From an uncultured Methanosarcinales archaeon (GTDB lineage: Archaea > Nanobdellota > Nanobdellia > Woesearchaeales > GW2011-AR9), in contig CAZIUU010000001.1 in NCBI GenBank assembly GCA_964542815.1, positions 12,206-70,149 on the forward strand: a DNA stretch of 57,944 nt. Reading direction: 5' to 3'. Positions 13,236 through 44,791 of the stretch are shown here, one piece after another. A program made the position numbers and the translations under genes. The notes below the pieces were generated by a model that saw only the letters and a program-made list of their open reading frames with translations, had not been told where the DNA came from and made no database searches. Numbering within the stretch: position 1 is the stretch's first letter; every line of letters starts with the position of its first letter.

Positions 13236-13402
13236 GTTTCATCCTGAAAAACGAGGTTGCCATCAATTGCGAGCGGCATGATTAGAGTTTCCGACAATTG
13301 TGGAAGGGGGCTGTCCCTCGGGGAAGGTGCCACAATATGATGGCTGAAGCGAAGAGCGAACCGATGGCAACCTAAGCAGGGCGAAAGTTTTCAGGATGAA
13401 AC
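13236..13402 (-). ncRNA. distant member of the UCCCCG-apex structured element family (strand inferred from the apex motif)
   Basis: Perfect 15-bp closing stem (GTTTCATCCTGAAAA / TTTTCAGGATGAAAC). Nested 10-bp stem (GGTTGCCATC / GATGGCAACC). 7-bp stem ATTGTGG/CCACAAT. On the minus strand the apex reads TTCCCCGAGGGACAGCCCCC, compared with TCCCCGTAAGGGACATCCCC in the 18.7 kb copy. Confidence 0.4.
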
Positions 13403-13460
13403 CGGTAAGAACTAAAGATTTATTAACTTCTTTATTTTTCTATTTAATTCGGGTGATAAG

Positions 13461-13637
13461 ATGAGCTTTCAAGACACTTTAAATGATTTCAGCCAGAAAA
13501 TTGGTGATTTCTTCTCATTCATAGGAGATAAGCTCAGGAATTTTAAGAGTCTAAGTATGGTAGAACAGGTTTCGTTTGGATGCATAGGAGTAGGTATACT
13601 CTTGATTTTAATCTCAGTAGTACTATTCTTATTCTGA
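13461..13637 (+). CDS. small membrane protein (58 aa, below the ORF-track cutoff)
   Basis: My own translation: MSFQDTLNDFSQKIGDFFSFIGDKLRNFKSLSMVEQVSFGCIGVGILLILISVVLFLF, with a C-terminal TM helix. Confidence 0.35.
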   Translation: MSFQDTLNDFSQKIGDFFSFIGDKLRNFKSLSMVEQVSFGCIGVGILLILISVVLFLF

Positions 13638-13681
13638 TTTCTTGTTTGATAAAGCTTATAAAATGCTGGCTTTGAACTGAA

Positions 13682-13990
13682 GTGATGGTAACTACTGGGG
13701 TAACTTTTGGAATCACAAATGGTTCCCCCACAAATCGTGCTAAAGTAATAGAAGATGTAGTTTTAGGACTTATGACCGAAGTTGGCAGTTCGGAAATGAA
13801 AGTTAGCGATGAATGGCTGTTTAATGCTGCTGCTTATCATTTCCATAAACAAACTCAGGAATCCCTCCCGGCTAATGAATATGAACGTGTGCTGGATCAG
13901 ATGAGAATCAGGGGACAGGTAGGGTATCACATGAGAAGTGAGAAAGGTGAAGCCAGATTTCATTATTTTCCTGCAGAAATTATTACTTAA
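13682..13990 (+). CDS. hypothetical protein
   Basis: ORF track only. No motif recognised and the start is uncertain. Confidence 0.3.
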   Translation: MMVTTGVTFGITNGSPTNRAKVIEDVVLGLMTEVGSSEMKVSDEWLFNAAAYHFHKQTQESLPANEYERVLDQMRIRGQVGYHMRSEKGEARFHYFPAEIIT

Positions 13991-14051
13991 TTTTCTCAAT
14001 AACTTTCTCCAGTGGAAATAACACTTCCATCGGAAATGAAGGTTACTTTCC

Positions 14052-14669
14052 TCACTTCAACACCTTCCTTTCCCCAGAATACAGTCCCATTCGAGTCATC
14101 TGGTCATATTGATTCTTAGTAAGGGTCAAAAAGGTTAATTCGAAGCCTTTCTCTTTGAGTTGCTGGCAAACTTCAGTTATCTTACCCGAATCGATGCCTT
14201 CGCCGATGAGCATGACGCTGGCTTTCTCCTTCTTCTGAGTACCATAGGTTACGATACTTTGAATGCTAGAAATACTTCCCACCAAGTTGACAAACTCCCC
14301 CAACCCATCGAATTCTTCATGGAACAGTTCTTTAAGGAAAGTTACTTTTTCGTTGTCTTCCGGGAAGTAAACTTTAGAGTTTTTCCATTCCCGTTTTTTT
14401 ATCAATCCAGAACTTACTAATTCTTGAAGGATACGAAATGTAGAAGTTAGGGAAACGTTACTTTTGGCAGCTACTTCGTTAAGGCATAACTCTTCCTTAG
14501 AATTGAATAATATTCTTAGAACTGCCGCTTTTTTAGAATCTACTAATTTTCCTAACACCTCCCCCCGGTCCATGGAATTGGTAAAAGCAAGGGGGTTTAT
14601 ATGGTTTTCTGTTTTGGAATTAGTTTTAGTTGAGGGAATTTGGTTTCTAAAAATGGAAGCCACCTCCAA
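14052..14669 (-). CDS. winged-helix transcriptional regulator with a C-terminal alpha/beta domain
   Basis: VLRILFNSKEELCLNEVAAKSNVSLTSTFRILQELVSSGLIKKREWKNSKVYF is a typical wHTH (MarR/TrmB-like). The start may be the internal MDRGEV. Confidence 0.6.
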   Translation of the reverse strand: MEVASIFRNQIPSTKTNSKTENHINPLAFTNSMDRGEVLGKLVDSKKAAVLRILFNSKEELCLNEVAAKSNVSLTSTFRILQELVSSGLIKKREWKNSKVYFPEDNEKVTFLKELFHEEFDGLGEFVNLVGSISSIQSIVTYGTQKKEKASVMLIGEGIDSGKITEVCQQLKEKGFELTFLTLTKNQYDQMTRMGLYSGERKVLK

Positions 14670-14949: not shown

Positions 14950-14959
14950 CTATAAATAC
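14950..14959 (+). promoter_or_regulatory. TATA-like box CTATAAATAC upstream of the nitroreductase gene
   Basis: About 25-34 nt upstream of the ATG at 14984. Confidence 0.35.
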
Positions 14960-14983
14960 TACAAGATAATTCTTCTGCTTAAA

Positions 14984-17316: not shown

Positions 17317-17565
17317 ATGGTACTACTTGAAATTAAAACCGCCACCATAACTGGAAAAGGTCAAATTGCTATTCCCAGAGATATTCGTGAGTTAGAAGGA
17401 TTCGAAGAGGGAGGGAAAATTGCAATTTTAGCTTTTGAAAATAGAGTAGAATTACGTCCGCTTAAACAGTTCAATGAGAAGATGTCAACTGCATTTGCGA
17501 GTGAGAAATCTTTAGCTGTTGATTGGTTGAGTAAAGAGGATGAAATAGCATGGAAGAATTTGTAA
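17317..17565 (+). CDS. AbrB/SpoVT-family DNA-binding protein (antitoxin-like, no adjacent toxin)
   Basis: TGKGQIAIPRDIRELEGFEEGGKIAILAFENRVELRPL is a swapped-hairpin AbrB/MazE-type motif. Confidence 0.7.
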   Translation: MVLLEIKTATITGKGQIAIPRDIRELEGFEEGGKIAILAFENRVELRPLKQFNEKMSTAFASEKSLAVDWLSKEDEIAWKNL

Positions 17566-17676
17566 AGGGCTTATTTTTAAAAGTTAATTCCCAGTGGTTT
17601 AAGCTTATTTTACGATTTTAGTTCTTTAAAAGAATATAATGTATATGCTTTACCGAAAGTCTTATAAAGAAGCCCC

Positions 17677-18619: not shown

Positions 18620-18668
18620 GGTATCTCTGTGGTTATTGCTTCAGTTTATATTATTTTCTAGTAAATTT

Positions 18669-18837
18669 GTATTTGTTTAGCATCATCAGGTCAAAATCCA
18701 ATTGATTATGACATAGAGAATGACAAGGGGATGTCCCTTACGGGGATGTCGTTTTAACAATATTTGAAGAGGGGATTTTGAAGTGTGAGCGCACTCACAT
18801 TACGAGACCGAAGTCGAGTCTAATGCCAAACAAATAC
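18669..18837 (-). ncRNA. UCCCCG-apex structured element, copy D (minus orientation)
   Basis: On the minus strand the closing stem GUAUUUGUUUGGCAU/AUGCUAAACAAAUAC has one G-U pair, which would be an A-C mismatch on the plus strand. P2 is UCAAAAUCC/GGAUUUUGA. The apex is GACA-UCCCCGUAAGGGACAUCCCC-UUGUC. Confidence 0.5.
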
Positions 18838-19425
18838 GTAAATTTTAAAAATAAGCCCTTTTATGACATAGATATGTTTGAACATAATTCCTCGGAAAGA
18901 AGCTTAGAAAAGGTTGGTATTGCTTTAGAAAGATTAGTTAAGGATAAACACTTACAGCTTCCTTTAACTGGTGAGAATAACAAGTATCTAATTTTGAACT
19001 GGATTGATCCTATGTTTAATGGAGTTGCCCCTAATTATACTTTACGTGCTTTTTTCGATAGAAAGCAGAGGGGCTACACCTCTGATGTATGCGATAAAGT
19101 GTTTTCAGGCTTGTATGGAATGACCGAGCAAGCATATCTAATCCGTTTCTTTGAGAAGTATTGGCAAAGAGACCGAGAGGAAATATTTAGCTTCCAGGAA
19201 GATTTTCAGGAATTGAATGAAGGATTAAAAGAGGAATTAAGAGAGGTTGTTTATCAAGTACGACAGAGGGAAAATGTCAGCAAGGAAGAGTATTCAATTA
19301 TGATTGGAATTTTTTTTCTGGATAAAGCCCATAAGTTAGGATTGGTTCAGCCATATGGCTGTTTTCTAAAGCATGCTTTGGTTGAGGTTGATGAGGCTCT
19401 CGGATGGGGTATGAAAGAAGGATGA
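18823..19425 (+). CDS. hypothetical protein (start moved to the internal ATG)
   Basis: The first 15 codons of the ORF-track model (18778) lie inside the repeat element. MPNKYVNFKN begins at 18823. Confidence 0.5.
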   Translation: MPNKYVNFKNKPFYDIDMFEHNSSERSLEKVGIALERLVKDKHLQLPLTGENNKYLILNWIDPMFNGVAPNYTLRAFFDRKQRGYTSDVCDKVFSGLYGMTEQAYLIRFFEKYWQRDREEIFSFQEDFQELNEGLKEELREVVYQVRQRENVSKEEYSIMIGIFFLDKAHKLGLVQPYGCFLKHALVEVDEALGWGMKEG

Positions 19426-21042: not shown

Positions 21043-21170
21043 TAGGCTTTATGCCTACTTTGTTTTGATGCAACTTTTGTAAAAGTTGCTTTGGGAGAAG
21101 TTATTAGGCGAGTGCCTCTCTTTTGATGCAACTTTTGTAAAAGTTGCAGGCGGTTCTATTTTGGGAGAAG
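21043..21170. repeat. tandem ~58-bp duplication containing the 27-bp palindromic unit TTTTGATGCAACTTTTGTAAAAGTTGC (21063-21089 and 21121-21147)
   Basis: Exact 27-mer repeated with a 58-bp period. Each copy is preceded by a short GC hairpin (TAGGC..GCCTA / AGGC..GCCT) and followed by TTTGGGAGAAG. Lies between the convergent genes proS and 21182..21526. Confidence 0.7.
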
Positions 21171-22546: not shown

Positions 22547-22569
22547 CTGTTTTTTCTCATATTTGTTTA

Positions 22570-22777
22570 GCATTAGACTCGACTTCGGTCTCGTAATGTG
22601 AGTGCGCTCACACTTCAAAATCCTAACTCATAAGTATCGCTGGAGCCACATCCCCGTAGGGGGCACGTCCCCCTGTGGCTCTCGAAGTGATATCGCAGGG
22701 ATTTTGACCTACACTCGACAGCGGTCTCTTTATGTTGCTGAGGCAACATTATGATGCTAAACAAATACTTTCCCTCA
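22570..22777 (+). ncRNA. UCCCCG-apex structured element, copy C (longest copy, with extra hairpins)
   Basis: P1 UAUUUGUUUAGCAU/AUGCUAAACAAAUA. P2 UCAAAAUCC/GGAUUUUGA. P3 GAGCCACA/UGUGGCUC. Apex UCCCCGUAGGGGGCACGUCCCC. Extra hairpins: GAC-UUCG-GUC, GUGAG-UGCG-CUCAC, AUGUUGC-UGAG-GCAACAU. Confidence 0.5.
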
Positions 22778-24548: not shown

Positions 24549-24618
24549 AATCGTAGTTCCTAAATACTTATAAGTTAGTTTCAGACTGTAATTGTTAAAT
24601 GAATCGGGAGGTAATAAA

Positions 24619-24924
24619 ATGGTAAATGATAATCAAGATGATGCTGAAGTTGGGGGTAGTGGAGAATATAAATCATTTAGAGATTTGATGTATAATTCTG
24701 ATGCAGGTAGATTTCTGATAATGATTAGTCTTTATGTAGGAATAGGAGTAGGAATTTGTGTGGGTTATCAACTCATAGATAATTACTTCCTTAAACCTTC
24801 AAATCCAATAATCCAACAACAAGTAATTGGTGGAGAAAAGCCAGAGGTTTATATCGAAAAAGATGGAGTAAAATACTATTCTCATGTTGATGGCAAAGAA
24901 ATTAGTGATTTATTCAAAAATTAA
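24619..24924 (+). CDS. small single-pass membrane protein (start moved to the ATG preceded by GGGAGG)
   Basis: MVNDNQDD... with TM helix FLIMISLYVGIGVGICVGYQLI. A GGGAGG site lies 7 nt upstream of the ATG at 24619. Confidence 0.45.
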   Translation: MVNDNQDDAEVGGSGEYKSFRDLMYNSDAGRFLIMISLYVGIGVGICVGYQLIDNYFLKPSNPIIQQQVIGGEKPEVYIEKDGVKYYSHVDGKEISDLFKN

Positions 24925-24936: not shown

Positions 24937-25057
24937 GGTTTAGCATCTTCGAAATTCTGAATGTGAATTCGCAAGCGCTGCGTCCCCGTAGGAGGCATCT
25001 CCCCGCGACGCGCTAGCTTCGGTAATCGTTGGAATTTCGACTTTATGATGCTAAACC
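24937..25057 (+). ncRNA. UCCCCG-apex structured element, copy A (minimal 121-nt form)
   Basis: P1 GGUUUAGCAUC/GAUGCUAAACC. P2 UCGAAAUUC/GAAUUUCGA. GC-rich P3 AGCGC../..GCGCU. Apex UCCCCGUAGGAGGCAUCUCCCC. Confidence 0.5.
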
Positions 25058-25068: not shown

Positions 25069-26217
25069 TTAACAACACTTCTCTTTCTTTTCTTCTTCTA
25101 CTGGCTTCGGCGGTATTTCTATCCTGATATGCATATGATCGCCGTGTCTTTTGTCGGGATAAAAAGCTTTGCCGTATTTCTGCCATTCTTCTTTCCCATA
25201 TTTTTCTGTTACATACTTTTTTAATGGATAAACATATCTTTGGCTCCAGAAAATGTATTCTATCTCTGAATTAGGAGCATCTTGCAATGACTTGACAAAT
25301 CTCCAATTTACTTCCAAAGTTTCTGGAGTGAGCATCTTCATACTTAATCCCCTGAACCCGCTTTTGTACTCGCCGTTTTCGAACCAATAATGACCTACAT
25401 CTATATCTATTCCATGACGATGGCTTATGTGTGGAGGAAGCCTACCTCCTCGAGCACTGCTTAAATCGCCAACCGTAAGCACCGGATAATTCCCTGAATA
25501 GGAATAATAAACATTAGTTGCACAGGCAGCTAGAGCCACGCTGTTAATCAATTCTGTCGCTCCAAATTTGGTCCCGTTTTTTCGGGTGCGGATATAATCT
25601 GTATCTGGCATCTCTGCCCACTTTAAATGGTTGAAATTTCTTGAATTCGACAATGGATTTGGAACTTCAGTAGGCGTTACCGAATAACAACTGGCAGTTT
25701 TTTCTGCTGCCTCTTCTACCGCTAGCTCTAGTCCGGAAAAATCGGGCAAATTTAATTGCGATGATTCTAGTTCTGAAGCAAACTCATGTAATTCATCTTG
25801 GGTAAGTAATCCTAACGTGGCTCTTTCTATATTATTTTTTGATTTTGGTTTGTAAGTGCTGGCAGCAGCGGTTCTTTCACCAAGTTTTACTGAAGGTTGA
25901 TGATTGGTATAATAAGCAGTAACACACATGCCTCCGGTGATACCCATTGCTATTACTGTAGCAATAGAAAAAGCTGTTTTCGCCCAGGATGGAAACGAAG
26001 GAGATGGAAATGAGAAAGATGTTTTTATTTTAGGAGCTAAGGTCGGTGGGGGTTCATTCTCAATGCATGCCATTTCCCACAAACGGGATTCATACGACGG
26101 AATTAACTTTCTTAATTTATCATATCCCTCTTTAACACATACTACTATATCGTTTTTAGATATTCTTTCAGCTAGTGAGGGGGGTTCTTGTTTGTAATTG
26201 AGGTTTATCCTAATCAT
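25069..26217 (-). CDS. membrane-anchored LAS-family metallopeptidase resembling penicillin-insensitive murein endopeptidase MepA (peptidase M74)
   Basis: PHISHRHGIDIDVGH resembles the MepA H-x-SHQ-x-GLDVD site, and GDHMHIRIE resembles its DH-x-H site. TM helix AFSIATVIAMGITGGMCVTAYY lies upstream of the catalytic domain. Confidence 0.6.
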   Translation of the reverse strand: MIRINLNYKQEPPSLAERISKNDIVVCVKEGYDKLRKLIPSYESRLWEMACIENEPPPTLAPKIKTSFSFPSPSFPSWAKTAFSIATVIAMGITGGMCVTAYYTNHQPSVKLGERTAAASTYKPKSKNNIERATLGLLTQDELHEFASELESSQLNLPDFSGLELAVEEAAEKTASCYSVTPTEVPNPLSNSRNFNHLKWAEMPDTDYIRTRKNGTKFGATELINSVALAACATNVYYSYSGNYPVLTVGDLSSARGGRLPPHISHRHGIDIDVGHYWFENGEYKSGFRGLSMKMLTPETLEVNWRFVKSLQDAPNSEIEYIFWSQRYVYPLKKYVTEKYGKEEWQKYGKAFYPDKRHGDHMHIRIEIPPKPVEEEKKEKCC

Positions 26218-26336
26218 CGCCCAGAAAAACTCTTTCGTATAGAAAAAGTTCCTTAGAAATAGGCTTTTAATATTCTTTTATAAGTTTTTTGTATTTGTTG
26301 TATATGCATTAGATAGCTAAACAATTACTTGAGTAT

Positions 26337-27248: not shown

Positions 27249-27270
27249 GGTGAGATAAGTGTTTCAACGA

Positions 27271-28977
27271 TTATTTATAAAGCTTTTTGGTCATATACAC
27301 CCTTTCCAACTTATATCCTAAGTTACGATAATACTCCCTTGCTCCTACTCCGGAGATAATCACCATTTTATCTTTCCCTGCTTTCTTAGCAATTTCTTCC
27401 GCTTTCTGTAGTAATTTCTTCCCCCAGCCGCGATGCTGCACGTTTCCCTCGTCACCAATACCAGTAGCCGTGCCATAAACATGCAGTTCTCGAATCAAAG
27501 CACTCTTAGAAGTAATCTCGGAGCGCAGAACCTGCGATGGAAAACGCATCCTGATAAATCCAATGAGCAAATCTTTTTCTGTATCTTCTGCTGAAATAAA
27601 GAATTCTTTTCCTCCAGATGCAATATAATTCATAACTTTAATCTTTACTTTATTCCAATTTATTTTCTCATTTTTTGGCTCTCGGCAGCGGATGCATCTG
27701 CACTTCACTTCATGATTCTGAGCCATATACTGCCGTAAATTAGTCATCTCTACTCCGGCGGTCATTTGAGTAGTAGGAATATCTCGCTGGATGCGCATTA
27801 TGCGGCAATATTCTGGCACGCTTTTCTTAAATTTCACCAATAATTTGGCTGCTTCATCAGCATTTAAAGGAATAAATTTCTTTTTCTGGTAATGAGAATA
27901 TAATTTAGTTCCGCGAGATACCATGCATGGATAAATTTTCAGCATATCTGGTTTGTAATCAGAATCAGAAAATAACTGTTTCATTCCGGCTAAATCTTTG
28001 CGGTAATTTGTCCTCTTAAAATCTTTATCCGGAAGTCCAGGCATGTAATGTGCTGCTACTTTAAATCCCAAATCGCGCAGGATTCGAATTGAATTTTTAG
28101 TATCAATTGTAGTATGTCCGCGTTCTATTTTTTTTAAAACTTTATCGTAAACGCTTTGTATTCCCAATTCTACTCTGGTGCAGCCTAATCTTAGCATTTC
28201 ATTTCCTTCTTTCAAAGTTCCATAATCTGGACGAGTTTCGATGCACAAAGCGACGCATCTAATCTTAGCGGTTTCGTTTAGGTGCTGGGCTTGCTCTAAA
28301 GTGCATTTCCATTTGAGTTTGAGCAGCTTTTCCTGTATTCTTTTCACCCGTAAATCATCTTCAATATCTGCCGGAAGCTCAAAAAAGCGTTTGAATTTTA
28401 GCAAGTTAAATCTTCCATCATGCTCTCTACTCTTGCCATAAAATAACCCCGAAAAATCATTCATCGCTTTGAATGCATACTTAATGAATTCTTCTTGATA
28501 CTCCTGCGGAAAACTGGGAAAAGTTCCTCCCATAATAATTAATTCCACTTTATCGCAATTATGTCCTTGTAAGATATACTGCTCTAAGCGGTTGAATACT
28601 TGCAGATATGGATCAAAGTTGTTTCTTATCCCCCGCATCGTAGCCGGCTCTCTGCCGGTGTAAGATTGAGGCACATCACCAAACTCGCTGTTAATTCCGC
28701 CGGGGCACATGATACATTTTCCATGCGGACAGGGAAACGGCTTAGTCATAATCGCTACCGGAGCAACTCCTGAAATAGTGCGCTGGGGCTTGCTAAGCAG
28801 CTTAGTTTTTAATTTAGGAAAATCTTTAGGAGTACAATGCAGTAAAACATCTATATTGGTTGGGACTTGATTTAATTTATATTTTTGAACTAATTCTAAC
28901 TTTAATTTGTCGTATTGCTTAGATGAAAGTCGCTGATGTTTAAGTGCAGAGATAAACTCGGAGTAAAACGTCGTCAT
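27271..28977 (-). CDS. elp3: Elp3-family radical-SAM/GNAT tRNA-modification enzyme
   Basis: Radical-SAM region ...KPFPCPHGKCIMCPGG...LIIMGGTFPS. C-terminal GNAT motif QHRGWGKKLLQKAEEIA. Confidence 0.9.
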   Translation of the reverse strand: MTTFYSEFISALKHQRLSSKQYDKLKLELVQKYKLNQVPTNIDVLLHCTPKDFPKLKTKLLSKPQRTISGVAPVAIMTKPFPCPHGKCIMCPGGINSEFGDVPQSYTGREPATMRGIRNNFDPYLQVFNRLEQYILQGHNCDKVELIIMGGTFPSFPQEYQEEFIKYAFKAMNDFSGLFYGKSREHDGRFNLLKFKRFFELPADIEDDLRVKRIQEKLLKLKWKCTLEQAQHLNETAKIRCVALCIETRPDYGTLKEGNEMLRLGCTRVELGIQSVYDKVLKKIERGHTTIDTKNSIRILRDLGFKVAAHYMPGLPDKDFKRTNYRKDLAGMKQLFSDSDYKPDMLKIYPCMVSRGTKLYSHYQKKKFIPLNADEAAKLLVKFKKSVPEYCRIMRIQRDIPTTQMTAGVEMTNLRQYMAQNHEVKCRCIRCREPKNEKINWNKVKIKVMNYIASGGKEFFISAEDTEKDLLIGFIRMRFPSQVLRSEITSKSALIRELHVYGTATGIGDEGNVQHRGWGKKLLQKAEEIAKKAGKDKMVIISGVGAREYYRNLGYKLERVYMTKKLYK

Positions 28978-29329
28978 ATTGAGATAGCACTTAATATTTA
29001 GTTATAAACCTATAGGAAATATTTTTAATATTTAGATAAATAAGTGAAATTATTTCCTAATAATCAAATCGCTTTATTTTAGTAAACATTTCCGATTATT
29101 AACGCGATTTGATATATCGTCGTTTAAACTAGATACCCATCAGGCTCTGTAGAAAATCTCGCTCGGTTGCTCGAATCAAAGTAAATCGTAATCGAGCACT
29201 GAGTGTTAGTCGCCATTGTTAGAATTGAAATGCACGAATAATATGGCTACCTCGCTGGTCAAGTTGACGATTTTCTACAGAACCTACTCATCAGTAAGAT
29301 TTATAACCTCTTTTGTTTTACTTGGGCTT

Positions 29330-32136: not shown

Positions 32137-33263
32137 ATACTACTGAATTTATGCAGATGGAAAAATTTAAAGCAATAACTTCAGTAATTACTTTAATAAG
32201 CAAGCTATCTGAACATGACTCCAGGATGACTTTTCCGGTTAAGCAAGAAAAGAGAGTTAGAGTGGACTTAAATTTATGGAATGATCTCTTTCTCCTATCC
32301 GATAAATCAATCTATCATATATCTCAAAATGTGAGAGATAGCAGTTGGAAACTTAAAGAAAAACCTCTGTTTAATGGGAAGCATTATTCTTGCCTTACTT
32401 CGTTTATCGTCGATGGAATTAAGTATACCGCAGCAGGGTATGGGAAGAACAGGTATAGGAGTGCAAGTTTCGGGATTGATATCACCAATCTGGCTGATGA
32501 TGAAACTGGTCAGGAAAGAAAAAACGTAACGTTTAATTTAGATTCAAATCGCGGATTTGATGGAGTTGGTATACTGCGTGGAGACACCGTTTATGATGTA
32601 TCAATTGTTGGTTCTCACCCAGAAGCAGGCATAATTAAAGTTCCATTGGAAGAGCTGGTGGAGAAAGATACATTGGCCATTGATCCTACTAATATCGGAA
32701 AGTATACTTTGTATGAAAACCCAAATAAGCAACAGCATGCTCCGTTAAAAGTGCATAAAAATAAGCTTTATCTAGGGCAGGATAAGACAGTGGTAGTCTT
32801 AGGTGCTACTGGGACAGTGGAAGCAGAGATGGAAGTTCCAATAATGGGGAATATTAAAGTGATTGAAGTAGATGATGAAGGAAATATCTTTTCAGGAACG
32901 GATAATGGGATTATTTATCGCAATCAAAGCAGTTTTTATGTCGGAAAGGAATTGCGCAGTATAACTAAAGTGTGTTGGGGAAAGCTTGGTAGCCACGAAG
33001 GACTTTTTTTCACGGGGGAGATGGAGCATGGCGGAGTTGGCCCGGTCTTATTTAAAGAAGGAACTGGCGGAAAGCCAGAAGAGGCTTGTTTCATACCCGG
33101 ATTAATTGACTTTGGGTATCGTGGCAGTATAAGCAGCAGAGATATGAGAGAAAATATAATTATTTTAACGTCCGGGGAGCTGATTGTTGGTGCTAAAAGA
33201 GTAACTATTTCGGGGTTTGATGCTAATTTAAGATTTAAAACAATTTATGTGGGGGGGAGTTAA
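32133..33263 (+). CDS. beta-rich (propeller-like) protein, unknown function
   Basis: 4-nt ATGA overlap with the upstream gene. Repeated short beta-strand/Gly-Asp turn patterns (IKVIEVDDEGNIFSGTDNGIIY). Confidence 0.45.
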   Translation: MNTTEFMQMEKFKAITSVITLISKLSEHDSRMTFPVKQEKRVRVDLNLWNDLFLLSDKSIYHISQNVRDSSWKLKEKPLFNGKHYSCLTSFIVDGIKYTAAGYGKNRYRSASFGIDITNLADDETGQERKNVTFNLDSNRGFDGVGILRGDTVYDVSIVGSHPEAGIIKVPLEELVEKDTLAIDPTNIGKYTLYENPNKQQHAPLKVHKNKLYLGQDKTVVVLGATGTVEAEMEVPIMGNIKVIEVDDEGNIFSGTDNGIIYRNQSSFYVGKELRSITKVCWGKLGSHEGLFFTGEMEHGGVGPVLFKEGTGGKPEEACFIPGLIDFGYRGSISSRDMRENIIILTSGELIVGAKRVTISGFDANLRFKTIYVGGS

Positions 33264-33264
33264 A

Positions 33265-34902
33265 ATGGTCGGTACAATAAGATTAACTAATGCATTAGAT
33301 AACAACGTAGAAGAGTATGAAATCGTAAGGGAAATTGGTTCCGGCACTACTGGAGTAGCTTACGAAGTTAGGCGTGAGGGTAGGATTTATGCGGCGAAAG
33401 AATGTACTTCTGATAGTAGAGATGATTTCATGCGTGATGCTGAAAAAATTTATCGTCATCCACCTTTGCATTTTGTAAAAATTTTAAGTTATGGCTCAGC
33501 AGATGTTTCTTATGAAGACCAAACTCGTAATAATCCGCTTTCGGTAATGGAATATGGAGGAAGCAACTTGCAGCAGGTGGGTGAGTTCATACGCACCAAT
33601 GCCGAAGCTTTAGTGGGAAGCCAAAACGCGGTGAAAGCCTTTGGGTATAAAGTATTGTACACGGTTCTGGAAAGTGTGTCTAAGCTTCATCAGGATAGTG
33701 GATGGCATGGTGACTTAGTGCCTACTAATATCCTGTGCGGATTTGATTTATCTGATTTTAAAGAAGTAACTGATGTTGCGCAGTTAGAGGACAGATTAAT
33801 TTATGAGCCGGTAAAATTGTGTGATAGCAGCCCTAGCGGAAGGGTAGGTTCATTGCGGTCAATGAAAGTAAAAGATTTTACTAAATTACATCCTCGAGAT
33901 AGTGCACTTTACCGGCATCTGTTAAGGCCGGAAGATGATTCTCAGAAACAGGATGTTAATGATTTGGCCGGTTACCTGTGGTGGTTTTTAGGTGGAAATA
34001 CCAAAAGCCCAAGTTTTTTTACTGGAATTGTTAAAGCATATGATGATGAAGGAAATTTGACAGTTTCAGTAGAGGATATGCTTGCTGGGGTTAAAGCTAA
34101 ATTATCCACGGAGAAAACTTTAATCGAACACAGAGCCAGAATCAAAGATGGCGAAAATTTTCCGTTAGTTTTAAGGCCGGGAGATGCATTTAGGTTGTCA
34201 TTTACTTCTAAAGTTCCACTTTCTACTGGCTCCGCGTTTAACGCGATGTACGTTGATGCTAAAAATTCCTATGACAAGATGCTTAAGCTGGGAGCGGGGG
34301 TAGTGCCTGCTGACGAAGAGAGAAGAATGCAGGACAGCCTTAAAGAGTTTGTGCTGGTTTCGGTTATAGATATACACAATAAATATCAACAGAAGCTTGA
34401 TGCTGGTCTGGAGCCATCAAAGAAGAAGGATACTTTGACCAAGAAGTTGAACACAAAAGGTAACAAACTGAAAACATTAGAGGCTGAGCTCAGTTCAGCT
34501 AAAACGAAAGCCACAGAGGCTGGAAGTACTTCTGTCAGTGATATTATTGATAAAGATAAATTTGCAGCTTATTCTCATGCGCGCGAGGTAGTTGAAGGGT
34601 TATCTAGCCAGCTTAGTAGTGTTCGTGATGGAATTAATGATATAAATGCAGAGCTGAAAGAAGTTGAGGGTAGGCTTAGTGTATATAACTATGAGGAAGA
34701 GTTGAATGCACTGAAAGAGGCTTCTGAGAAATGCCCTCCTGCGGTTTTTGCAGGAGAATTTAAAGAAATGATGGATTACTTCAACCCAAATTTATCTCCT
34801 TCCCCCCAACCACTGCCAGCAGCAGAAGTGGCTCAGCGCTGCCGCAAGATTATCATTACCAATAATTTATGGGAAAAAGTTGAATCATTATTGCCAAGAT
34901 AG
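33265..34902 (+). CDS. divergent Ser/Thr protein kinase-like protein with a C-terminal coiled coil
   Basis: G-loop IGSGTTGVAY, Lys RIYAAKE, catalytic loop HGDLVPTNIL (HRD to HGD), VKLCDSS in place of DFG. Long heptad region at 34380-34700. The ATG at 33265 is preceded by GGGGGGAG. Confidence 0.65.
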   Translation: MVGTIRLTNALDNNVEEYEIVREIGSGTTGVAYEVRREGRIYAAKECTSDSRDDFMRDAEKIYRHPPLHFVKILSYGSADVSYEDQTRNNPLSVMEYGGSNLQQVGEFIRTNAEALVGSQNAVKAFGYKVLYTVLESVSKLHQDSGWHGDLVPTNILCGFDLSDFKEVTDVAQLEDRLIYEPVKLCDSSPSGRVGSLRSMKVKDFTKLHPRDSALYRHLLRPEDDSQKQDVNDLAGYLWWFLGGNTKSPSFFTGIVKAYDDEGNLTVSVEDMLAGVKAKLSTEKTLIEHRARIKDGENFPLVLRPGDAFRLSFTSKVPLSTGSAFNAMYVDAKNSYDKMLKLGAGVVPADEERRMQDSLKEFVLVSVIDIHNKYQQKLDAGLEPSKKKDTLTKKLNTKGNKLKTLEAELSSAKTKATEAGSTSVSDIIDKDKFAAYSHAREVVEGLSSQLSSVRDGINDINAELKEVEGRLSVYNYEEELNALKEASEKCPPAVFAGEFKEMMDYFNPNLSPSPQPLPAAEVAQRCRKIIITNNLWEKVESLLPR

Positions 34903-34975
34903 GGGGCGATAACCTTAAACATTAATATTTAAACCTTAACACCCAAACATTAACATTAAGTCTGGAGATAAAATA

Positions 34976-36874
34976 ATGACGGAATCTACCCGGGATCTGG
35001 TTGTGCGAAGAATTAATAGAATAGGCACTCCAGCAAGTGAGAGAATAATTGACTGTTTGGACTATTTGGTAGAAGACGATGGGAATGATGAGGATGATGG
35101 GAATGATAAGAGCCGCAGGCTTCAGTTAAAAGACGATCCTGAATTGGTGTTCCATTTAGGGATCTCCCTGTTAGAGACAGCAGTTGAGCCTATCCCAGAT
35201 AAACGGTTCTATCAAAAAGTAAGTGGTAAATTAAACCGCTGCTTTGACAAAAGCGAAGGGTTTAAGCTGGATAACTATGGCTTAAAATGCCTTCCTGATT
35301 CTGTGCAGGCTGCAAAGAACACTTCAGTTGATGTTAGATTCATGGCTCAAAGTAGTTGGGTGTTAGGTCTACTGAGGGAGAAGCAGGGGTATTCCTACCA
35401 AGTGCGTGAGGCGTTAAGTAAAATTAATGTTTTCTATGTCCAACACGGCGCAGCAGAAAAACCAGAAACCAGAATTAAGTGCTTATTGGAAATTTCTGAC
35501 GAGCTTAACGAGCCTAATGCATTAGTCTGGCTAACTTGGTTATATCTCAACAAAAGCGATTGGAACAACACGTTAAAGTATGCGCAGAAAGGTATTGCTA
35601 ATGCTAAGCTGACCGACGATGAAATTACCAAGTCATTCCTGTTGCAATCTTTAGTTAAGAGTGTGTATGAGCTAAAATGTAATGAAGAGGGAAAATGGAA
35701 AGGTGGGATTGTAGATCTTTTAGGAGATAATCTTGAGGCTTATACTTTACTAGAGAGGTGGTGCGGTGATAATCTCGGTAAGATTAGTGGTTTTTATTCT
35801 AATGCCTTGTCCGAGATAGAAAGAAAGAAAGATAAGAGTCCAGAATATCAAGTTCTAGAGGGAATATTACATTCACGAAGAGGTAGAGTATACCGAAAAA
35901 TGGCTCGCAAGGCAGTTGGTTTTAGTTTACCGACTGCTGGAGCTTGGTATCAGTTGGTTTTAAGAGATGTTCCAGATGATGCAGAAGCAAACCTAATGCT
36001 GGCGCGCCTGGATGCTGAACTGAATAAACTAGAAGGGGCCTCTGCTAAATACCAAAAAGTGCTTAGCTTGGAGAGTTGCCCAATTGAATTTAAAGTTGAG
36101 GCATACTTATTCCTCGCGAGGAAAACGTCCGGTTTAACTTCGAACAATGAGCAATATTATGCTAAAGTGCTGGAGCTGCAGCCAGACAATCTTGAAGCAC
36201 AATTGTTTATGGGCGCTTTAAAGCTGTGGGGGAGTGTTGTTCTGGGTGGAATTAATGCTTCCAACCTAAGAATGGCAGAAGGATATTATACTTCTGTCTT
36301 GAGTAAAGACGCCGATAACTTTAGTGCTTGGCGGGGGTTAGGCCGATGTTATTTTTACCAGAAGCAATGGGAGCAGGCTTTTGGCTGTTTTGAGAAGTGT
36401 TTTGATGCACTGCCAAATGATAGTACAGCAGAACAATCTGGCGAGCACCGCTCTTTCTTCGTCCAGGGGGATTTTGCAGCAATGCTGTTTAGCCGGTATA
36501 AGTATTCTTGTTATACTGATGATTTGCCGAGTGCGGCTTTGGACGCGGAAAGGATGATTAAATCTTCAAAGGCAACCCGCATGCTAGATCAGCATACCTT
36601 TGCTTATCTTGCATCTGATTTAACTTTAAAATTATCTCAAGCCTCGGTTAATAATGTTAACCTCCGTTCATCACATGACCGTAAACATTATTTCGGGTTG
36701 GATCCCTTAGGGTTGGAGGTTAGCGACAACCCGGTTGAGGTTCTTAACCGAATTAAGGAAGAGGTTAAAGTTATTTCTAAATTGGGATACAATTATAGCT
36801 CGGTTACTGCCAAGCCGCCGCTTCTGGCACGAGCATATTTAGCTTTAGTGGGCAAGCGAGGTGATTCCAGATGA
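34976..36874 (+). CDS. TPR-repeat protein
   Basis: Multiple 34-residue repeats, e.g. AEGYYTSVLSKDADNFSAWRGLGRCYFYQKQWEQAFGCFEKCFDALPND and YYAKVLELQPDNLEAQLF. Confidence 0.75.
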   Translation: MTESTRDLVVRRINRIGTPASERIIDCLDYLVEDDGNDEDDGNDKSRRLQLKDDPELVFHLGISLLETAVEPIPDKRFYQKVSGKLNRCFDKSEGFKLDNYGLKCLPDSVQAAKNTSVDVRFMAQSSWVLGLLREKQGYSYQVREALSKINVFYVQHGAAEKPETRIKCLLEISDELNEPNALVWLTWLYLNKSDWNNTLKYAQKGIANAKLTDDEITKSFLLQSLVKSVYELKCNEEGKWKGGIVDLLGDNLEAYTLLERWCGDNLGKISGFYSNALSEIERKKDKSPEYQVLEGILHSRRGRVYRKMARKAVGFSLPTAGAWYQLVLRDVPDDAEANLMLARLDAELNKLEGASAKYQKVLSLESCPIEFKVEAYLFLARKTSGLTSNNEQYYAKVLELQPDNLEAQLFMGALKLWGSVVLGGINASNLRMAEGYYTSVLSKDADNFSAWRGLGRCYFYQKQWEQAFGCFEKCFDALPNDSTAEQSGEHRSFFVQGDFAAMLFSRYKYSCYTDDLPSAALDAERMIKSSKATRMLDQHTFAYLASDLTLKLSQASVNNVNLRSSHDRKHYFGLDPLGLEVSDNPVEVLNRIKEEVKVISKLGYNYSSVTAKPPLLARAYLALVGKRGDSR

Positions 36875-38154
36875 GTGAAAATATAAATTTGGTGTTTGGT
36901 GTCGGCGCAGACGATAATAACTTGGAGAAAGGGATATATACTTGCTCCTGGAATCAGGAAGATAGAACAGCTAAGTTGTGGAAACGATTGGGGCTGGATG
37001 GGAAGGAAGATGTAGAAGGCGGTCAAACTCCTCGGGTGATTAAGTGCGTAGGTGATAAAATATGTGCTGCAACCAGGGGAGGAATTTTTGTGGTAAATCG
37101 GGCTGGAGTAACCGTTGAGCAAAGGAAACTTGAAGACTTATTCCCACCAGAAGACGAGGACGAGGCTAAGAAACTCACGGACAAACCTACCGCCAAAGTT
37201 GGAATGCTTTTCACCGAAAGCAAAAGCTTGTTTGTATCCCTCTCCCTCCCTTCCAAAGATAAAGCTGGAAAGCCAATTTATCTTGGCCGCTTACTGTACT
37301 CCCCGAATGGGAACTTGGATCAGCTTAAGCCATTGCCCAACAAATCTGTTTCATCTTCAGTTGTTCCATCTTCGGCTCCAGTTTATTATAATCATAGAGG
37401 GATAGAAAAAGTACTGATTCCGAGCCAGAACCATCTGGAAACCATAATCCTGAATAAAGGCCTGGTGCAGGGCAGTGGCCCTCACTATCCCACTAAAGAT
37501 GGTCCTTTAGATGGCAACATACTTTCAGTATCAACTGCAGGCGGCATTATAGTGTGCACTGATGATAAAGATGGTTATTTAATTGTTGATGAGAGAGGGG
37601 ATAGGAAGAGAGAGAGATATTATCGCCGCGAGGCTGAATCTGACTTTCTCTTGGATGATAATTGCGGGGAGTATCTCCCGTCTGAAGCAACGGCTTCATT
37701 AGTAACTTTCATTGATAACAAGGCGTATGTATTGATGGGCATGAATGATGGGATTTTGGGTGCTTATGAAATTTACTCTGGTGCTGGCTATCCCAAACTG
37801 CTTCTTAGAAATATGATACAATTGATATCTGACTGGAAATCACTGGAAGTATCACGTGGAGGCGGCCCGATTTATGGGCTTAAAGAGCATATCGGGTATT
37901 TGCAGTTTACCATGCGTAATTTGTATTTTAGAATGTCTTGCAGGGATGTACTTAACCCCCAAAAGTCTATAATTACTGAGGAAGAAGAGAATCAAAAGCC
38001 AGTAATAAAAGTAGATGAAGCCACCGGGAAAAAGGAAGAAGACTTTAACACTGGTTACTTATCGATTTTGGAACAAAAATTCGAGCCAAGATTAGCGATT
38101 TGTGGAACCCCGCACCGGATATCTTGTTGGGATAATTATAATGGTGGTGATTAA
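36871..38154 (+). CDS. beta-rich (propeller-like) protein, unknown function
   Basis: ATGA overlap with the TPR gene. Repeated strand/turn motifs: ICAATRGGIFVVNRAG, VSTAGGIIVCTDDKDGYLIV, LMGMNDGILGAYEI. Confidence 0.45.
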   Translation: MSENINLVFGVGADDNNLEKGIYTCSWNQEDRTAKLWKRLGLDGKEDVEGGQTPRVIKCVGDKICAATRGGIFVVNRAGVTVEQRKLEDLFPPEDEDEAKKLTDKPTAKVGMLFTESKSLFVSLSLPSKDKAGKPIYLGRLLYSPNGNLDQLKPLPNKSVSSSVVPSSAPVYYNHRGIEKVLIPSQNHLETIILNKGLVQGSGPHYPTKDGPLDGNILSVSTAGGIIVCTDDKDGYLIVDERGDRKRERYYRREAESDFLLDDNCGEYLPSEATASLVTFIDNKAYVLMGMNDGILGAYEIYSGAGYPKLLLRNMIQLISDWKSLEVSRGGGPIYGLKEHIGYLQFTMRNLYFRMSCRDVLNPQKSIITEEEENQKPVIKVDEATGKKEEDFNTGYLSILEQKFEPRLAICGTPHRISCWDNYNGGD

Positions 38155-38162
38155 GCGCAAAC

Positions 38163-39587
38163 ATGAAAATATACGTAAGAGACGAAATAAACCGGCTGCA
38201 TGACCGGCGGGAGGATGCTCATTGTACTTCCAGCTTTAAAGATAAGGTGGGGAATAAATGGGAAATAGTTATAATTGCTGATGGGTTGAGCGGCTATCAT
38301 GGTGCAGTTGCCAGTGGAAAAAGTGTTAATGCGGTTAGGAACTATTTAACGGAGATTTTATCGCGAGATAAAGAATATTCTCCCGAAAACGCATTAAAGG
38401 GAGCTGTGCTCCATGCGAATGAGGAGTTGGAAAAAATCGGCACTACTTACACCACTATAGACACGGTTCTACTCTCTGAAGACAAATTGTATCTTGCCCA
38501 TCTGGGAGATAGCAGAGTGTATCTTGGTTTTGGGAGCACTTTAGAACTGGTGACTGAAGACCAGGGTGATTCTAATGGCCCTAAAAATTATATTGGATGC
38601 ACCTATATCGAAGGTAACTCTAAAAATATTGCTGCCAGAGTGGAATTGGCCGTAACCGAACTCCTCTCTAAAGGATATGCTAGGCCCTCTGAAATCTTGC
38701 TGGCTACTGATGGATTAATGAGTCGAGTAACCGATGCTGAGATCACTGAAATATGGGCCGATGCCCACAAAGTAAATTACGATCCCTCGGCAGTACTGGA
38801 GAAGTTCGTAGAACGTATTCGCCGTCCGGTTGGCAAGTTGAGTGAGCTGACAGAAAATCAAATACGGCGTATCGTGGGAGGGATACCAGATTTTAATCTT
38901 GGTCCTGGTGATTCTAAAGAGCAGATGATTGAGAAGATTTTAGATGCATATGTCCGAAGAGAAAGCGGGGAGTTGGTGAAAAGGATTGATGGAAATCTGA
39001 AGTATGACGATGCAACTCTGATTCTGGTCGACTTAAAAGATTCTGTTGGCAACAGTTTTGACGAATTAACAAAAGTTAAGATAAAACTTCCTGAAGTAGA
39101 GGGTGAGCGAGATGTATTTCGGGCTGATGCAATTGCAAAAGGAGAAAGAATCTCTCAGCTCACCGAAGAGAAAAGCAGCTTAGACGATACAATAAGAACA
39201 GAGAGGGAAGAAAGAAGAATTGAAGTAGAGAGATCGTTGGCGGAAATACAAGGATTAAACCAAACCATTTCTTCTCAACAGTTAACTATTGGTGATTATG
39301 TTCATAAGCTGGTTGAGATGATGGACAACACCTATTCCCTCGTTGAAAGGTACTTTACCCATCTAAAATCAGACGGCTTACCAAGACCACCTGTTGAAGA
39401 TGTAAACTTAATACAAATATTGCCTCCTGGGGAGAGAGGTAAACTACTACAAATATTTACAGAAGGGGTTAAATTAAAGGGAGAGTTGCCCACGACCTCT
39501 GGGCCGTCCTTAACTAAAAAAGTTGTTGGGGGCATTGGAAAAAGTGTTGTTGGGGTTTTAAAGTGGGGGGAGGAGAAAGATGAGTGA
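38163..39587 (+). CDS. PP2C-family Ser/Thr phosphatase with a C-terminal coiled coil
   Basis: IIADGLSGYHGAVAS, LAHLGDSRVYL, LATDGLMSRV and DDATLILVDL match the PP2C metal-binding motifs in order. Confidence 0.8.
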   Translation: MKIYVRDEINRLHDRREDAHCTSSFKDKVGNKWEIVIIADGLSGYHGAVASGKSVNAVRNYLTEILSRDKEYSPENALKGAVLHANEELEKIGTTYTTIDTVLLSEDKLYLAHLGDSRVYLGFGSTLELVTEDQGDSNGPKNYIGCTYIEGNSKNIAARVELAVTELLSKGYARPSEILLATDGLMSRVTDAEITEIWADAHKVNYDPSAVLEKFVERIRRPVGKLSELTENQIRRIVGGIPDFNLGPGDSKEQMIEKILDAYVRRESGELVKRIDGNLKYDDATLILVDLKDSVGNSFDELTKVKIKLPEVEGERDVFRADAIAKGERISQLTEEKSSLDDTIRTEREERRIEVERSLAEIQGLNQTISSQQLTIGDYVHKLVEMMDNTYSLVERYFTHLKSDGLPRPPVEDVNLIQILPPGERGKLLQIFTEGVKLKGELPTTSGPSLTKKVVGGIGKSVVGVLKWGEEKDE

Positions 39588-40932: not shown

Positions 40933-40954
40933 AGATTAACCAATTTAAAAAACC

Positions 40955-43048: not shown

Positions 43049-43052
43049 TGGC

Positions 43053-44624
43053 TCATTTGTAATTAACTTTGCTTTTACTTATCCCTTCTCTCAGCGCAAT
43101 GTAAATTATGGCATCATCACCTAATAATTTTTCCCCTACTTTACCAAACTTTTGTTTATCTATACTGCCTACTCTGTCTTTAAGTGTAGTACAAGAATAT
43201 TCCCCTTTCTCATTTATTCCAGCTATCTGCAGGCATAATTGTTTCAGCGAAGAGTCTTGAGTATATCGTGAATATCTAGCTCCGGCTATGGCTAGATCCT
43301 GCTCTTTGACGATGGACATCCACGGAATATCTTTATTGGGAATAGCATCTATTGGTTTTTGGTTTGGGTTTGGTGCAACATCCTTAATTTGTGGCTTGAG
43401 TTCGTATTCCCCCACTGTTATATTTAATTCTCTTTTTTTGGTGAGCTGAGTCGCAGTAACATACTTACTTATCCTATCAATCCAATCGAACTGATCTTGC
43501 AGTAATTTAACTGTGTTTGATTCACCCAAGCGTTCACAATATTCTTTTAACTCCATTGCTCTGTCAGCATAATTGCTTAATCTGGTATAATTATGCGAAT
43601 TGATATTCGCAGTTATGGTTTTGGTTAATTCAGAACATTCAGTTTTAGCTAATTCGGTAAGTTCTTTTTTTCTATCTTCCTTTAGTTTTTTCAGATCATG
43701 AGCTAGTTGGTGAAAATCGGCTAGATCTTTTTTTAGAAGCAGATAATCAGTTGCAGGTGCTGTAACATTATTCGGTATTACCACTTTGTCAACATAAGTT
43801 TGGTTTAGTGCCGGGCTATTATTACTGAGATATACAAAGTCATCACGAAGTGTAATAATTTCCTGCCATAGTTCTCTCTTTACTTTCTGAAACCCTGCCG
43901 AATTTTCGGTTACTTTTTCGATATCATCTTTAATCTGTGTGAATGCTTCTAATGGCGATGCGTCTAATATTGTTAGCTCTTCATTGCTTAATCTATTTTC
44001 AGGTCTTTGTTTAAGTTTGTGTTTTATTCCATCGGCTTTCTGCCAGAAATCATGTTCAAATTCATGTTTAAATTTGATAACCTCATCAACACTAGTTAAT
44101 TGGGCATACTGCTTAAGATATTTTTCTGCCATTTGAGGCGAAGCTATGAATGCTAATTCTGACATATCAGCATAGAACTGATTTAATTGTGTTTTTCCGG
44201 GGAATAATTCTGGGTCGAGATCAGCAGCGCAACGGTACTTGGAACAAAGCTCCATGACCGAGGTTAGTTCTCCTTCTTTATTTGCTTCTGTAGAATTGTG
44301 CCATCTTTTAAAGCCAACTTTTATTTGTGGGGCTAATGATAAATATTCTTTTCGTCTTTGTGATAAAACTTCTACAATCTCTTCAAAAGCGTGATTAGCT
44401 TCTTTAATCTCCCGATAGCTGGAAGGCGGCAAATCTCCTCCGCAGGTTTTTTGTAGATGGATAATCTCGTCTTGTAATCTTCTTAATCCTGATTGAGCTC
44501 GGATTAAATTATCTGCGGTTAGTTGTTCTGGATTAGTTAATGCTTTTCTTCTGTTAATAATCTCTTCCAAACATTTCTTGTTATCAATCCAATACATATA
44601 TGCATCCGTTTGTGTACTCATCAT
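43053..44624 (-). CDS. large alpha-helical protein, unknown function; last gene of the minus-strand cluster
   Basis: ORF track. Helical and coiled-coil composition. No motif recognised. Confidence 0.45.
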   Translation of the reverse strand: MMSTQTDAYMYWIDNKKCLEEIINRRKALTNPEQLTADNLIRAQSGLRRLQDEIIHLQKTCGGDLPPSSYREIKEANHAFEEIVEVLSQRRKEYLSLAPQIKVGFKRWHNSTEANKEGELTSVMELCSKYRCAADLDPELFPGKTQLNQFYADMSELAFIASPQMAEKYLKQYAQLTSVDEVIKFKHEFEHDFWQKADGIKHKLKQRPENRLSNEELTILDASPLEAFTQIKDDIEKVTENSAGFQKVKRELWQEIITLRDDFVYLSNNSPALNQTYVDKVVIPNNVTAPATDYLLLKKDLADFHQLAHDLKKLKEDRKKELTELAKTECSELTKTITANINSHNYTRLSNYADRAMELKEYCERLGESNTVKLLQDQFDWIDRISKYVTATQLTKKRELNITVGEYELKPQIKDVAPNPNQKPIDAIPNKDIPWMSIVKEQDLAIAGARYSRYTQDSSLKQLCLQIAGINEKGEYSCTTLKDRVGSIDKQKFGKVGEKLLGDDAIIYIALREGISKSKVNYK

Positions 44625-44658
44625 GATTAATACCTCCGATGTTTTTATTATTGTTGTA

Positions 44659-44791
44659 GTATGTGCATAGCATCTTCAAAATTCTGGTGAGGGTTATCGT
44701 TGGGGTGACATCCCCGTAGGGGGCAAGTTCCCCTGTCACCATCGCAGGAATATTCTGAATTAATTTTGACCTTATGATGCTATGCACATAC
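44659..44791 (+). ncRNA. UCCCCG-apex structured element, copy B
   Basis: Perfect 16-bp P1 GUAUGUGCAUAGCAUC/GAUGCUAUGCACAUAC. P2 UCAAAAUU/AAUUUUGA. P3 GGUGACA/UGUCACC. Apex UCCCCGUAGGGGGCAAGUUCCCC. Confidence 0.5.

Follow-up and report, generated by a model that had tools for sequence, protein, structure and literature searches.

The repeats in a 57,944-nucleotide stretch of archaeal chromosome (contig CAZIUU010000001.1, positions 12,206 to 70,149 of the forward strand; hereafter the window) raise the question of whether they represent a new kind of RNA gene or mobile DNA. The first-pass annotation, made from the sequence alone, had described five intergenic copies with nested covarying stems and had interpreted them as a structured RNA or protein-recognised hairpin, rather than as recently copied MITEs (transposable elements of the miniature inverted-repeat kind). 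All five were located in our analysis and are related, 121-210 nt in length and each able to fold as one long hairpin. We consider it likely, nonetheless, that they constitute an undescribed MITE family of DPANN archaea, that is, mobile non-coding DNA elements and not a new RNA gene class. The family displays inverted termini, multicopy dispersal, random orientation and a mosaic build; insertion is accompanied by an 8-bp target-site duplication, elements are present or absent at orthologous sites, and they land between genes in either orientation and occasionally in frame within genes.

Target-site duplications and an empty site

Target-site duplications, which the first-pass annotation had proposed as the mark of a MITE, were found both in the window and in its relatives. 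The window element at 18.7 kb is bounded by a perfect pair:

18661-18668: left copy of the target-site duplication of the 18.7 kb element, GTAAATTT on the plus strand, perfect 8 bp
18838-18845: right copy of the same duplication, GTAAATTT, perfect 8 bp

A scan for 8-bp direct repeats directly outside 10-bp inverted termini, made around 125 matches to the covariance model (R1, described below), was positive for 18, corresponding to 16 listed elements that include the 18.7 kb copy; two of the 16 (L156 and L199, L numbers denoting the fetched loci) look like a single locus read on opposite strands. When the right flank was shifted by 3, 5, 9 or 13 nt as a control, the positives numbered 4, 2, 0 and 0, respectively. 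Terminal inverted repeats with perfect 8-bp duplications were present at L005, L042, L051, L058 and L089.

A comparison of orthologous sequence was provided by L003 (metagenome-assembled genome (MAG) DeMMO3_35), which matches window 25.8-29.9 kb in gene order with a nucleotide identity of 83-89% (~84% as an overall figure). L003 has a 130-bp element of terminal-repeat class c (2087-2216) at precisely the point where the window sequence runs on without a break. The alignment is split there into two blastn blocks (window 27281-27613 = L003 2549-2217; window 27607-29143 = L003 2084-561) that overlap within the window Elp3 gene:

27607-27613, in the Elp3 gene (27271-28977, minus strand): empty target site, where the blastn blocks overlap by 7 nt

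The overlap marks the position of the duplicated target, an orthologous empty site. Together with the perfect 8-bp duplications of the 18.7 kb copy and 15 further distinct relatives, it overturns the earlier dismissal of a MITE origin.

The reading frame remains open across the L003 insertion, with the Elp3 protein reading ..NYIASGGKEFFISAEDTEK.. in the window and ..EYTASQDK[SMCIASSSRNTTIIEAGASRGDAPYGDAALANSHPEFRRCYAHT]GKEFFISAEDTEN.. in L003, whose open reading frame (ORF, 673-2556) has 46 additional codons in frame, flanked by Radical_SAM and GNAT domains (Pfam). A second in-frame case in the same MAG (L110 7119-7251) lies in another radical-SAM ORF (6413-7687), where 133 + 8 bp amount to 47 codons; the two inserts share element strand and frame and encode peptides of the form ..MCIA...RRCYAHT. 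Family-wide, stop-free frames through the element were not enriched and stood at the level of shuffled sequence, so that the in-frame insertions look like survivors of selection and not a design feature.

Copies in the window and their gene context

The five copies lie in a region of ~39% G+C with housekeeping genes, including those for ribosomal protein S6e, FtsZ, prolyl-tRNA synthetase and Elp3, at a density of 5 copies per 58 kb (~86 per Mb, or one per ~12 kb among core genes). Their orientations along the window run - - + + +:

13236-13402, minus strand: 13.3 kb copy; long outer stem GTTTCATCCTGAAAA.., inner stem ATTGTGG/CCACAAT; model match 13254-13373, 20 bits, E = 0.006
18669-18837, minus strand: 18.7 kb copy; terminal repeat GTATTTGTTT(A/G)GCAT (class b); model match 18684-18783, 52 bits
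22559-22768, plus strand: 22.6 kb copy; terminal repeat (G/A)TATTTGTTTAGCAT (class b); core match 22615-22710, 61 bits
24937-25057, plus strand: 25.0 kb copy; compact, single module, outer stem GGTTTAGCATC/GATGCTAAACC; 119 bits; -47.6 kcal/mol, z = -5.3
44659-44791, plus strand: 44.7 kb copy; single module, terminal inverted repeat GTATGTGCATAGCATC (class c); model match 44664-44786, 109 bits

The compact 25.0 kb copy is situated between convergent genes (24592-24924, plus strand; 25069-26217, minus strand), and no target-site duplication is recognisable in its flanks. The 44.7 kb copy lies 7 nt past the stop of one gene (44799-46382, minus strand) and ~35 nt upstream of the start of another (43053-44624, minus strand); its flanks agree at just 4 of 8 positions, for which reason it is probably an old insertion, and its class-c terminal repeat recurs with perfect 8-bp duplications at L143, L149, L156, L158 and L193. 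The 22.6 kb copy occupies a divergent intergenic region and has a core module with additional small hairpins on either side; its terminal repeats place it at 22559-22768, correcting the bounds of 22570-22777 given previously, and 6 of 8 positions agree between its flanks, TTTTTCTC and TTTCCCTC. The copy at 13.3 kb begins 5 nt past the stop of the S6e gene, has a fold z-score of -5.9 and is a borderline, distant family member. No target-site duplication was seen at the 25.0, 44.7 and 13.3 kb copies. An ORF at 18778-19425 seemingly overlaps the 18.7 kb copy; it has an in-frame ATG at 18874, which removes the overlap, and therefore all five copies are intergenic, as had been claimed.

Fold, covariation and apex

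The covariance model R1 was built from 11 compact copies and, when run without filters on the 57.9-kb window, returned exactly five copies at E < 0.05, besides the opposite strands of those copies. Fold z-scores of the five ranged from -4.7 to -5.9 against dinucleotide shuffles. Each module is a palindrome of ~120 nt with two outer stems (P1, P2), one inner stem (P3) and an apex CCCC-GNA-GGGG that is followed by CA and a C-run:

Top-strand DNA: d(CCCCGTAGGGG)

The P1/P2 junction of 1 x 6 nt reads C-U-UC... / ...GAC-CUKAKG in the main subtype, and a second subtype has a different junction. Among 39 aligned copies, 91.6% of cells pair, versus 42-50% after displacement of the 3' partners by 1-3 columns, and changes on both sides occur in 28 of 33 pairs; P1 and P2 pairing was likewise upheld in an alignment of 88 copies. 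The nested covarying stems of the earlier description, variable in sequence yet complementary and combined with conserved unpaired parts, are thus borne out.

The apex reads as follows in the five copies:

13306-13325, minus strand: 13.3 kb apex, TTCCCCGAGGGACAGCCCCC
18727-18746, minus strand: 18.7 kb apex, TCCCC-GTAA-GGGA-CAT-CCCC
22651-22673, plus strand: 22.6 kb apex, TCCCC-GTA-GGGGG-CACG-TCCCCC
24983-25004, plus strand: 25.0 kb apex, TCCCC-GTA-GGAGG-CATC-TCCCC
44711-44733, plus strand: 44.7 kb apex, TCCCC-GTA-GGGGG-CAAGT-TCCCC

With up to 3 mismatches allowed, a 15-mer of the apex occurs four times in the window, where chance would give 0.41. The description of the apex as near-invariant holds exactly for two window copies and fails for the other three, where GGAGG (25.0 kb), GTAAGGGAC (18.7 kb) and CCCCGAGGGAC (13.3 kb) differ; copies found secondarily have the variants CCCC-GAA-GGGG, CCCC-GTAA-GGG, CCCC-GGAT-GGGG and TTCCC-GTAT-GGAG. 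Two candidate apex pairings, the 5' C-run with the G-run and the G-run with the 3' C-run, are inseparable by covariation in loci biased by their retrieval through the apex motif; in these apex-fetched loci the 5' hairpin has a few C-G to U-A exchanges and the 3' alternative mostly G-U. The data speak neither for nor against the G-run switch or pseudoknot that the first-pass annotation had suggested. A CCCC-GNA-GGGG hairpin followed by an unpaired C-run is mildly favoured, because in a few copies the 5' run and G-run change together (TTCC/GGAG) while the 3' C-run is unchanged. The CCCC-GNA-GGGG sequence would fit the very stable d(cGNAg) DNA triloop.

Distribution and mosaic composition of the family

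An exact-pattern scan of one genome per species showed the same architecture almost exclusively in DPANN archaeal MAGs, the carriers being several Candidatus Woesearchaeota, a Nanoarchaeota MAG and the 'archaeon' MAGs DeMMO3_27, DeMMO3_35, nzgw58 and nzgw59. In metagenomes at least 120 stretches, mostly from groundwater and sediment, matched a stricter pattern, and viral contigs contained no apex-pattern match and only single, unpaired, chance-level matches to 14-mer termini. R1 returned 39 matches in the window and 22 archaeal genome loci taken together, and 88 matches in 100 metagenome loci (G+C 0.36-0.69). A published census lists one Woesearchaea genome with 105 MITEs per Mb, uncharacterised (PMC11602168), and our literature search found no paper describing these elements or their apex motif.

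The elements measure 121-306 bp across the family, each consisting of short terminal inverted repeats around one or two ~120-nt modules. The terminal-repeat classes include GTATTTGTTTAGC and GTATGTGCATAGC, which are the terminal inverted repeats in the window, GTAATACTTCA, GTAAGTAAAAA and an nGC... class, the relatives having both the same and other classes than the window:

Terminal-repeat classes, longer forms: GTATGTGCAT (as in the 44.7 kb copy); GTATTTGTTT; GTAATACTTC; GTAAGTAAAA; nGC...

One folded core, with its CCCC-GNA-GGGG apex and subsequent C-run, is found in at least five of these classes and from 36 to 69% G+C. In other genomes the GTAATACTTCA class carries two modules of differing subtype in inverted arrangement, giving doublets of ~300 bp; such mixed inverted doublets occur in L005, L053, L089 and L094, and perfect duplications flank those of L005 (TGTTTTCA) and L089 (GCACTTTC). 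The 22.6 and 18.7 kb copies are 98% identical over their 5' 64 nt with different cores, and the 25.0 kb core is 93% identical to that of the L003 element, whose termini differ; the elements are therefore mosaics.

One variant of the module is rich in G+C (Woesearchaeota A_NAN_12, ~66% G+C; L002, L040, L050, L084, L111) and has an extra hairpin GGTTCCTCGGAGCCTCGGAACC between the apex hairpin and the C-run. Several of its copies lie at contig ends, which suggests that they break assemblies.

Pattern matches in bacteria were rejected as chance occurrences within genes and an unrelated, multicopy Syntrophomonadaceae repeat. The latter (L008, L017, L029, L033, L035, L037, L038, L056, L063, L070, L087, L090, L112, L114) combines a TTCCCGAAGGGAA hairpin and the same TCCCCGTAGGGGGCA hairpin; some of its copies directly follow tRNA genes.

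Candidate transposase and proposed mechanism

A search of the fetched loci for autonomous elements (8-bp duplications and 12-bp inverted termini, 400-6000 bp apart) revealed one true insertion sequence (IS), at L138 373-1572, which is 1200 bp long and has an 8-bp duplication ACAAAACC and termini TGCTCTGTTGCG:

L138 IS, inverted termini, longer form: TGCTCTGTTGC(G/A)

It encodes a 302-aa IS5-family DDE transposase (NF033579, 196 bits versus a cut-off of 140; Pfam DDE_Tnp_1 and DDE_Tnp_1_5), lies ~80 bp from a module element, and has termini that agree with those of the L205 element (nGC class, AGCTTTGTTG) at 8 of the first 10 positions. Within IS5, the ISH1 subgroup is characterised in the ISfinder classification by 8-bp duplications and -GC ends. 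The other candidates, in gyrase and permease genes, were chance matches, and tblastn of the L138 transposase against all fetched DNA returned only itself.

We propose that the elements may be mobilised in trans by DDE transposases, most likely IS5-family enzymes, whose staggered cuts are 8 bp apart. The hairpin potential would be a property of the DNA, with the two arms kept complementary at the DNA level, either through selection for a foldable element or through arm-to-arm correction in an extruded or single-stranded palindrome; stems maintained in this way would drift and yet stay Watson-Crick, imitating RNA covariation. The constrained parts would then be the unpaired apex, the C-run and the P1/P2 junction, which would probably be recognised, once folded, by the machinery of mobilisation or of the host, the weakest step of the proposal.

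DNA palindrome or RNA

Since the outer stems are almost purely Watson-Crick, the two strands fold alike and orientation is unbiased, the signals point to a DNA palindrome and not to an RNA. P1 contains 316 Watson-Crick, 4 G.T and 3 A.C cells and P2 273, 5 and 7, respectively; the outer stems are thus nearly wobble-free, and their scarce wobble has no strand preference. The mean predicted fold energy (-47.3 kcal/mol) is the same for both strands, and GNRA and UNCG loops are not in excess on the sense (model) strand. Between tandem gene pairs, 21 elements are sense and 15 antisense, with a further 20 in divergent and 7 in convergent positions. The family does not behave as a cis-leader, in agreement with the first-pass annotation.

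That annotation could assign the repeats to no RNA class it knew, and scans with Rfam 15 and for tRNA and transfer-messenger RNA (tmRNA) agree in giving no relevant match. Over the whole window there was no Rfam 15 match at gathering thresholds and no tRNA or tmRNA, and at E <= 10 the copies gave no Rfam match beyond generic hairpins (for example MIR172, 22.7 bits versus a threshold of 70). A type II hammerhead was considered and rejected: CUGAUGA occurs in some copies only, others having CUUAUGA or CCUUAGGA, so that the core is not conserved; GAAA is fully paired inside P2, helix I is absent, and no Rfam hammerhead match appeared at E <= 10. A K-turn or C/D-box interpretation of UGAUG was likewise rejected on inspection of the sequence, the opposite strand having no tandem G.A partner.

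Several observations weigh against the family being simply MITEs. A perfect duplication is retained by only ~1 element in 8, and a core shared by at least five unrelated terminal classes and across 36-69% G+C is not explained by plain neutral MITE decay. No transposase was present among the window ORFs scanned, the fetched loci contained no autonomous element with the window's GTA-type termini, and the IS5 link comes from a single contig, with a terminal class other than the window's. R1 is strand-specific, the best copy scoring 119 bits against 24 bits on the opposite strand, and the element is therefore asymmetric. Furthermore, G.T exceeds A.C in P3 (21 versus 5) and in the apex helix (20 versus 6) only, an excess to which individual columns and a doubtful pairing contribute much; the inner part could nevertheless have a function as RNA or as a single strand. 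Apex conservation among the relatives is inflated and partly an artefact, because the apex motif was used to fetch them.

Two explanations give the core a role of its own, and we regard each as unlikely. The core module could be a functional structured RNA (a small non-coding RNA, or else a signal for regulation or processing at the RNA level) that was spread by or captured into mobile elements and whose apex and junction bind an RNA-binding protein. The strand specificity of R1 and the inner-stem G.T excess speak for it, as do the retention of one architecture across terminal classes and G+C contents with compensatory change in 28 of 33 pairs, the insertion of hairpins at fixed junctions, and side hairpins that in some cases have UUCG, UGCG or GUGA loops. 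Elements delimited by their duplications (131-134 bp), however, have no room for a promoter, copies are tolerated within coding sequence, and a match to an Rfam family is absent; the nearly G-U-free outer stems, the equal fold energy of the strands, the lack of enrichment of RNA-type tetraloops on the sense strand and the unbiased orientation relative to genes are contrary to it as well. Alternatively, the asymmetric core (apex hairpin plus free C-run, with the fixed P1/P2 junction) could be the functional unit and the terminal repeats interchangeable carriers. Such a core might be the handle of a structure-specific mobilisation system acting on a folded, cruciform or single-stranded DNA hairpin, in which case the near-perfect Watson-Crick stems would reflect arm-to-arm correction while folded, or it might be a genome punctuation element or RNA adopted by the DPANN host, comparable to what repetitive extragenic palindromic (REP) elements became in bacteria.

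Movement as single-stranded hairpins by an HUH transposase (Y1, REP-associated tyrosine transposase (RAYT) or IS200/IS605-type) would make the inverted doublets of two module types in L005, L053, L089 and L094 equivalent to REP doublets forming hairpins (REPINs) or bacterial interspersed mosaic elements (BIMEs). IS200/IS605 and RAYT-type transposition is not known to produce a target-site duplication, and the regular 8-bp duplications, alongside terminal inverted repeats, therefore contradict this explanation; notwithstanding the GTAG motif at the apex, the conserved hairpin loops and the fit of the apex to a stable d(cGNAg) triloop, it is very improbable. The modules are, moreover, ~120 nt and not 20-40 nt, and the window ORFs scanned included no Y1 transposase, a search that did not extend to whole carrier genomes. 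Least credible of all is an identity with attC recombination sites of archaeal integrons, for which the 8-bp duplications flanking the elements are also adverse. Imperfect palindromes of 120-170 nt between genes, conserved in structure over sequence, resemble such sites, and archaeal integrons and integrase-less attC clusters have been reported in DPANN (PMC9668308). The ends are nevertheless variable and without R''/R' boxes (RYYYAAC...GTTRRRY), any GTT being on the wrong side; the copies are in mixed orientations among large housekeeping genes and not in a one-directional cassette array, and no integrase was found among the ORFs scanned.

Other features of the window

Two further differences between the window and L003 were noted. 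Where the window has ~30 bp (26290-26336, including AGCTAAACAATTAC, which resembles the right end of the GTATTTGTTTAGC class), L003 6712-7449 contains a pair of small ORFs (76 and 145 aa); this is an indel of two genes that may include a solo terminal repeat. A remnant terminal-repeat pair at 26290-26328 was rejected, as the left half is ancestral flank common to L003, leaving at best a solo right end. Between methylase and Elp3 genes, L003 2549-5789 contains ~3.2 kb with ORFs of 258 and 791 aa that the window (27251-27281) is without.

A 1.25-kb segment is enclosed by a 23-nt inverted repeat AAAGGGCTTATTTTTAAAAGTTA (96% complementary; 17564-17586 and 18839-18861), which adjoins the end of the 18.7 kb element and has the look of a shared, AT-rich motif of promoter type. 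A smaller second palindromic repeat, TTTTGATGCAACTTTTGTAAAAGTTGC, is located at 21058-21089 and 21116-21147, downstream of the prolyl-tRNA synthetase gene, and has one copy in L003 (7522-7573), in a non-orthologous position that corresponds to just 7 bp in the window; this repeat could be a further small mobile hairpin, or else be of terminator type. The window also contains a gene cluster for a protein-kinase-like protein, a TPR protein and a PP2C phosphatase (33247-39587) and, elsewhere, toxin-antitoxin-type genes (PIN, 12189-12626; MazE-like, 17317-17565).

Significance and comparison with known systems

Although the genomes of DPANN archaea are among the smallest of any cells, one element is found here per ~12 kb of core genes. 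Strong RNA-like covariation with conserved loops can evidently come from a DNA palindrome, and the DNA and RNA interpretations can be told apart by how G.T mismatches compare in number with A.C, by the fold energy of each strand and by target-site duplications. A named and modelled family with defined termini would allow annotators to mask the repeats and would prevent their confusion with RNA genes, attC sites and CRISPR-like repeats, and the elements are markers for strain-level insertion polymorphism in groundwater populations. Noteworthy are the single structured core in several terminal classes, the heterotypic inverted doublets and the in-frame insertions in essential-type genes.

Integron attC sites are likewise palindromic, structure-conserved and intergenic, and are active as folded single strands; the elements described here differ in lacking R and L boxes, a cassette array and a fixed orientation, and in having duplications. 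With the REP/BIME/REPIN, Correia, ERIC, BOX and RUP repeats they share dispersed intergenic positions, folding as stable hairpins, a modular or mosaic build and possible side effects on transcripts, and with BIMEs and REPINs also inverted doublets of two module types. None of these bacterial structured-repeat families is related in sequence to the present elements (no Rfam match), and REPs, unlike our ~120-nt modules with terminal repeats and 8-bp duplications, are 20-40 nt long, without duplications and RAYT-dependent. Rickettsia palindromic elements resemble them as palindromic repeats of ~100-150 bp in small genomes that can lie in frame within protein genes with the ORF left open, as in the L003 Elp3 and L110 radical-SAM genes. 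This is a likeness of behaviour only, with no sequence relationship expected; the copies here are mostly intergenic and have clear terminal repeats and 8-bp duplications.

The last comparison is with prokaryotic MITEs that derive from IS5-family insertion sequences or are moved by them, including archaeal MITEs such as MITEHsal of Halobacterium (PMC7002104). The body of the present elements is not a deletion derivative of the L138 IS, which is without the module; at least five terminal classes share one structured core, and no partner was found for the window classes. Notwithstanding these differences, both groups are non-coding and multicopy, measure 120-300 bp, have terminal inverted repeats and a duplication of fixed length, and are present or absent at orthologous sites; here, the termini of one class resemble those of a neighbouring IS5-family element with an equal duplication length.

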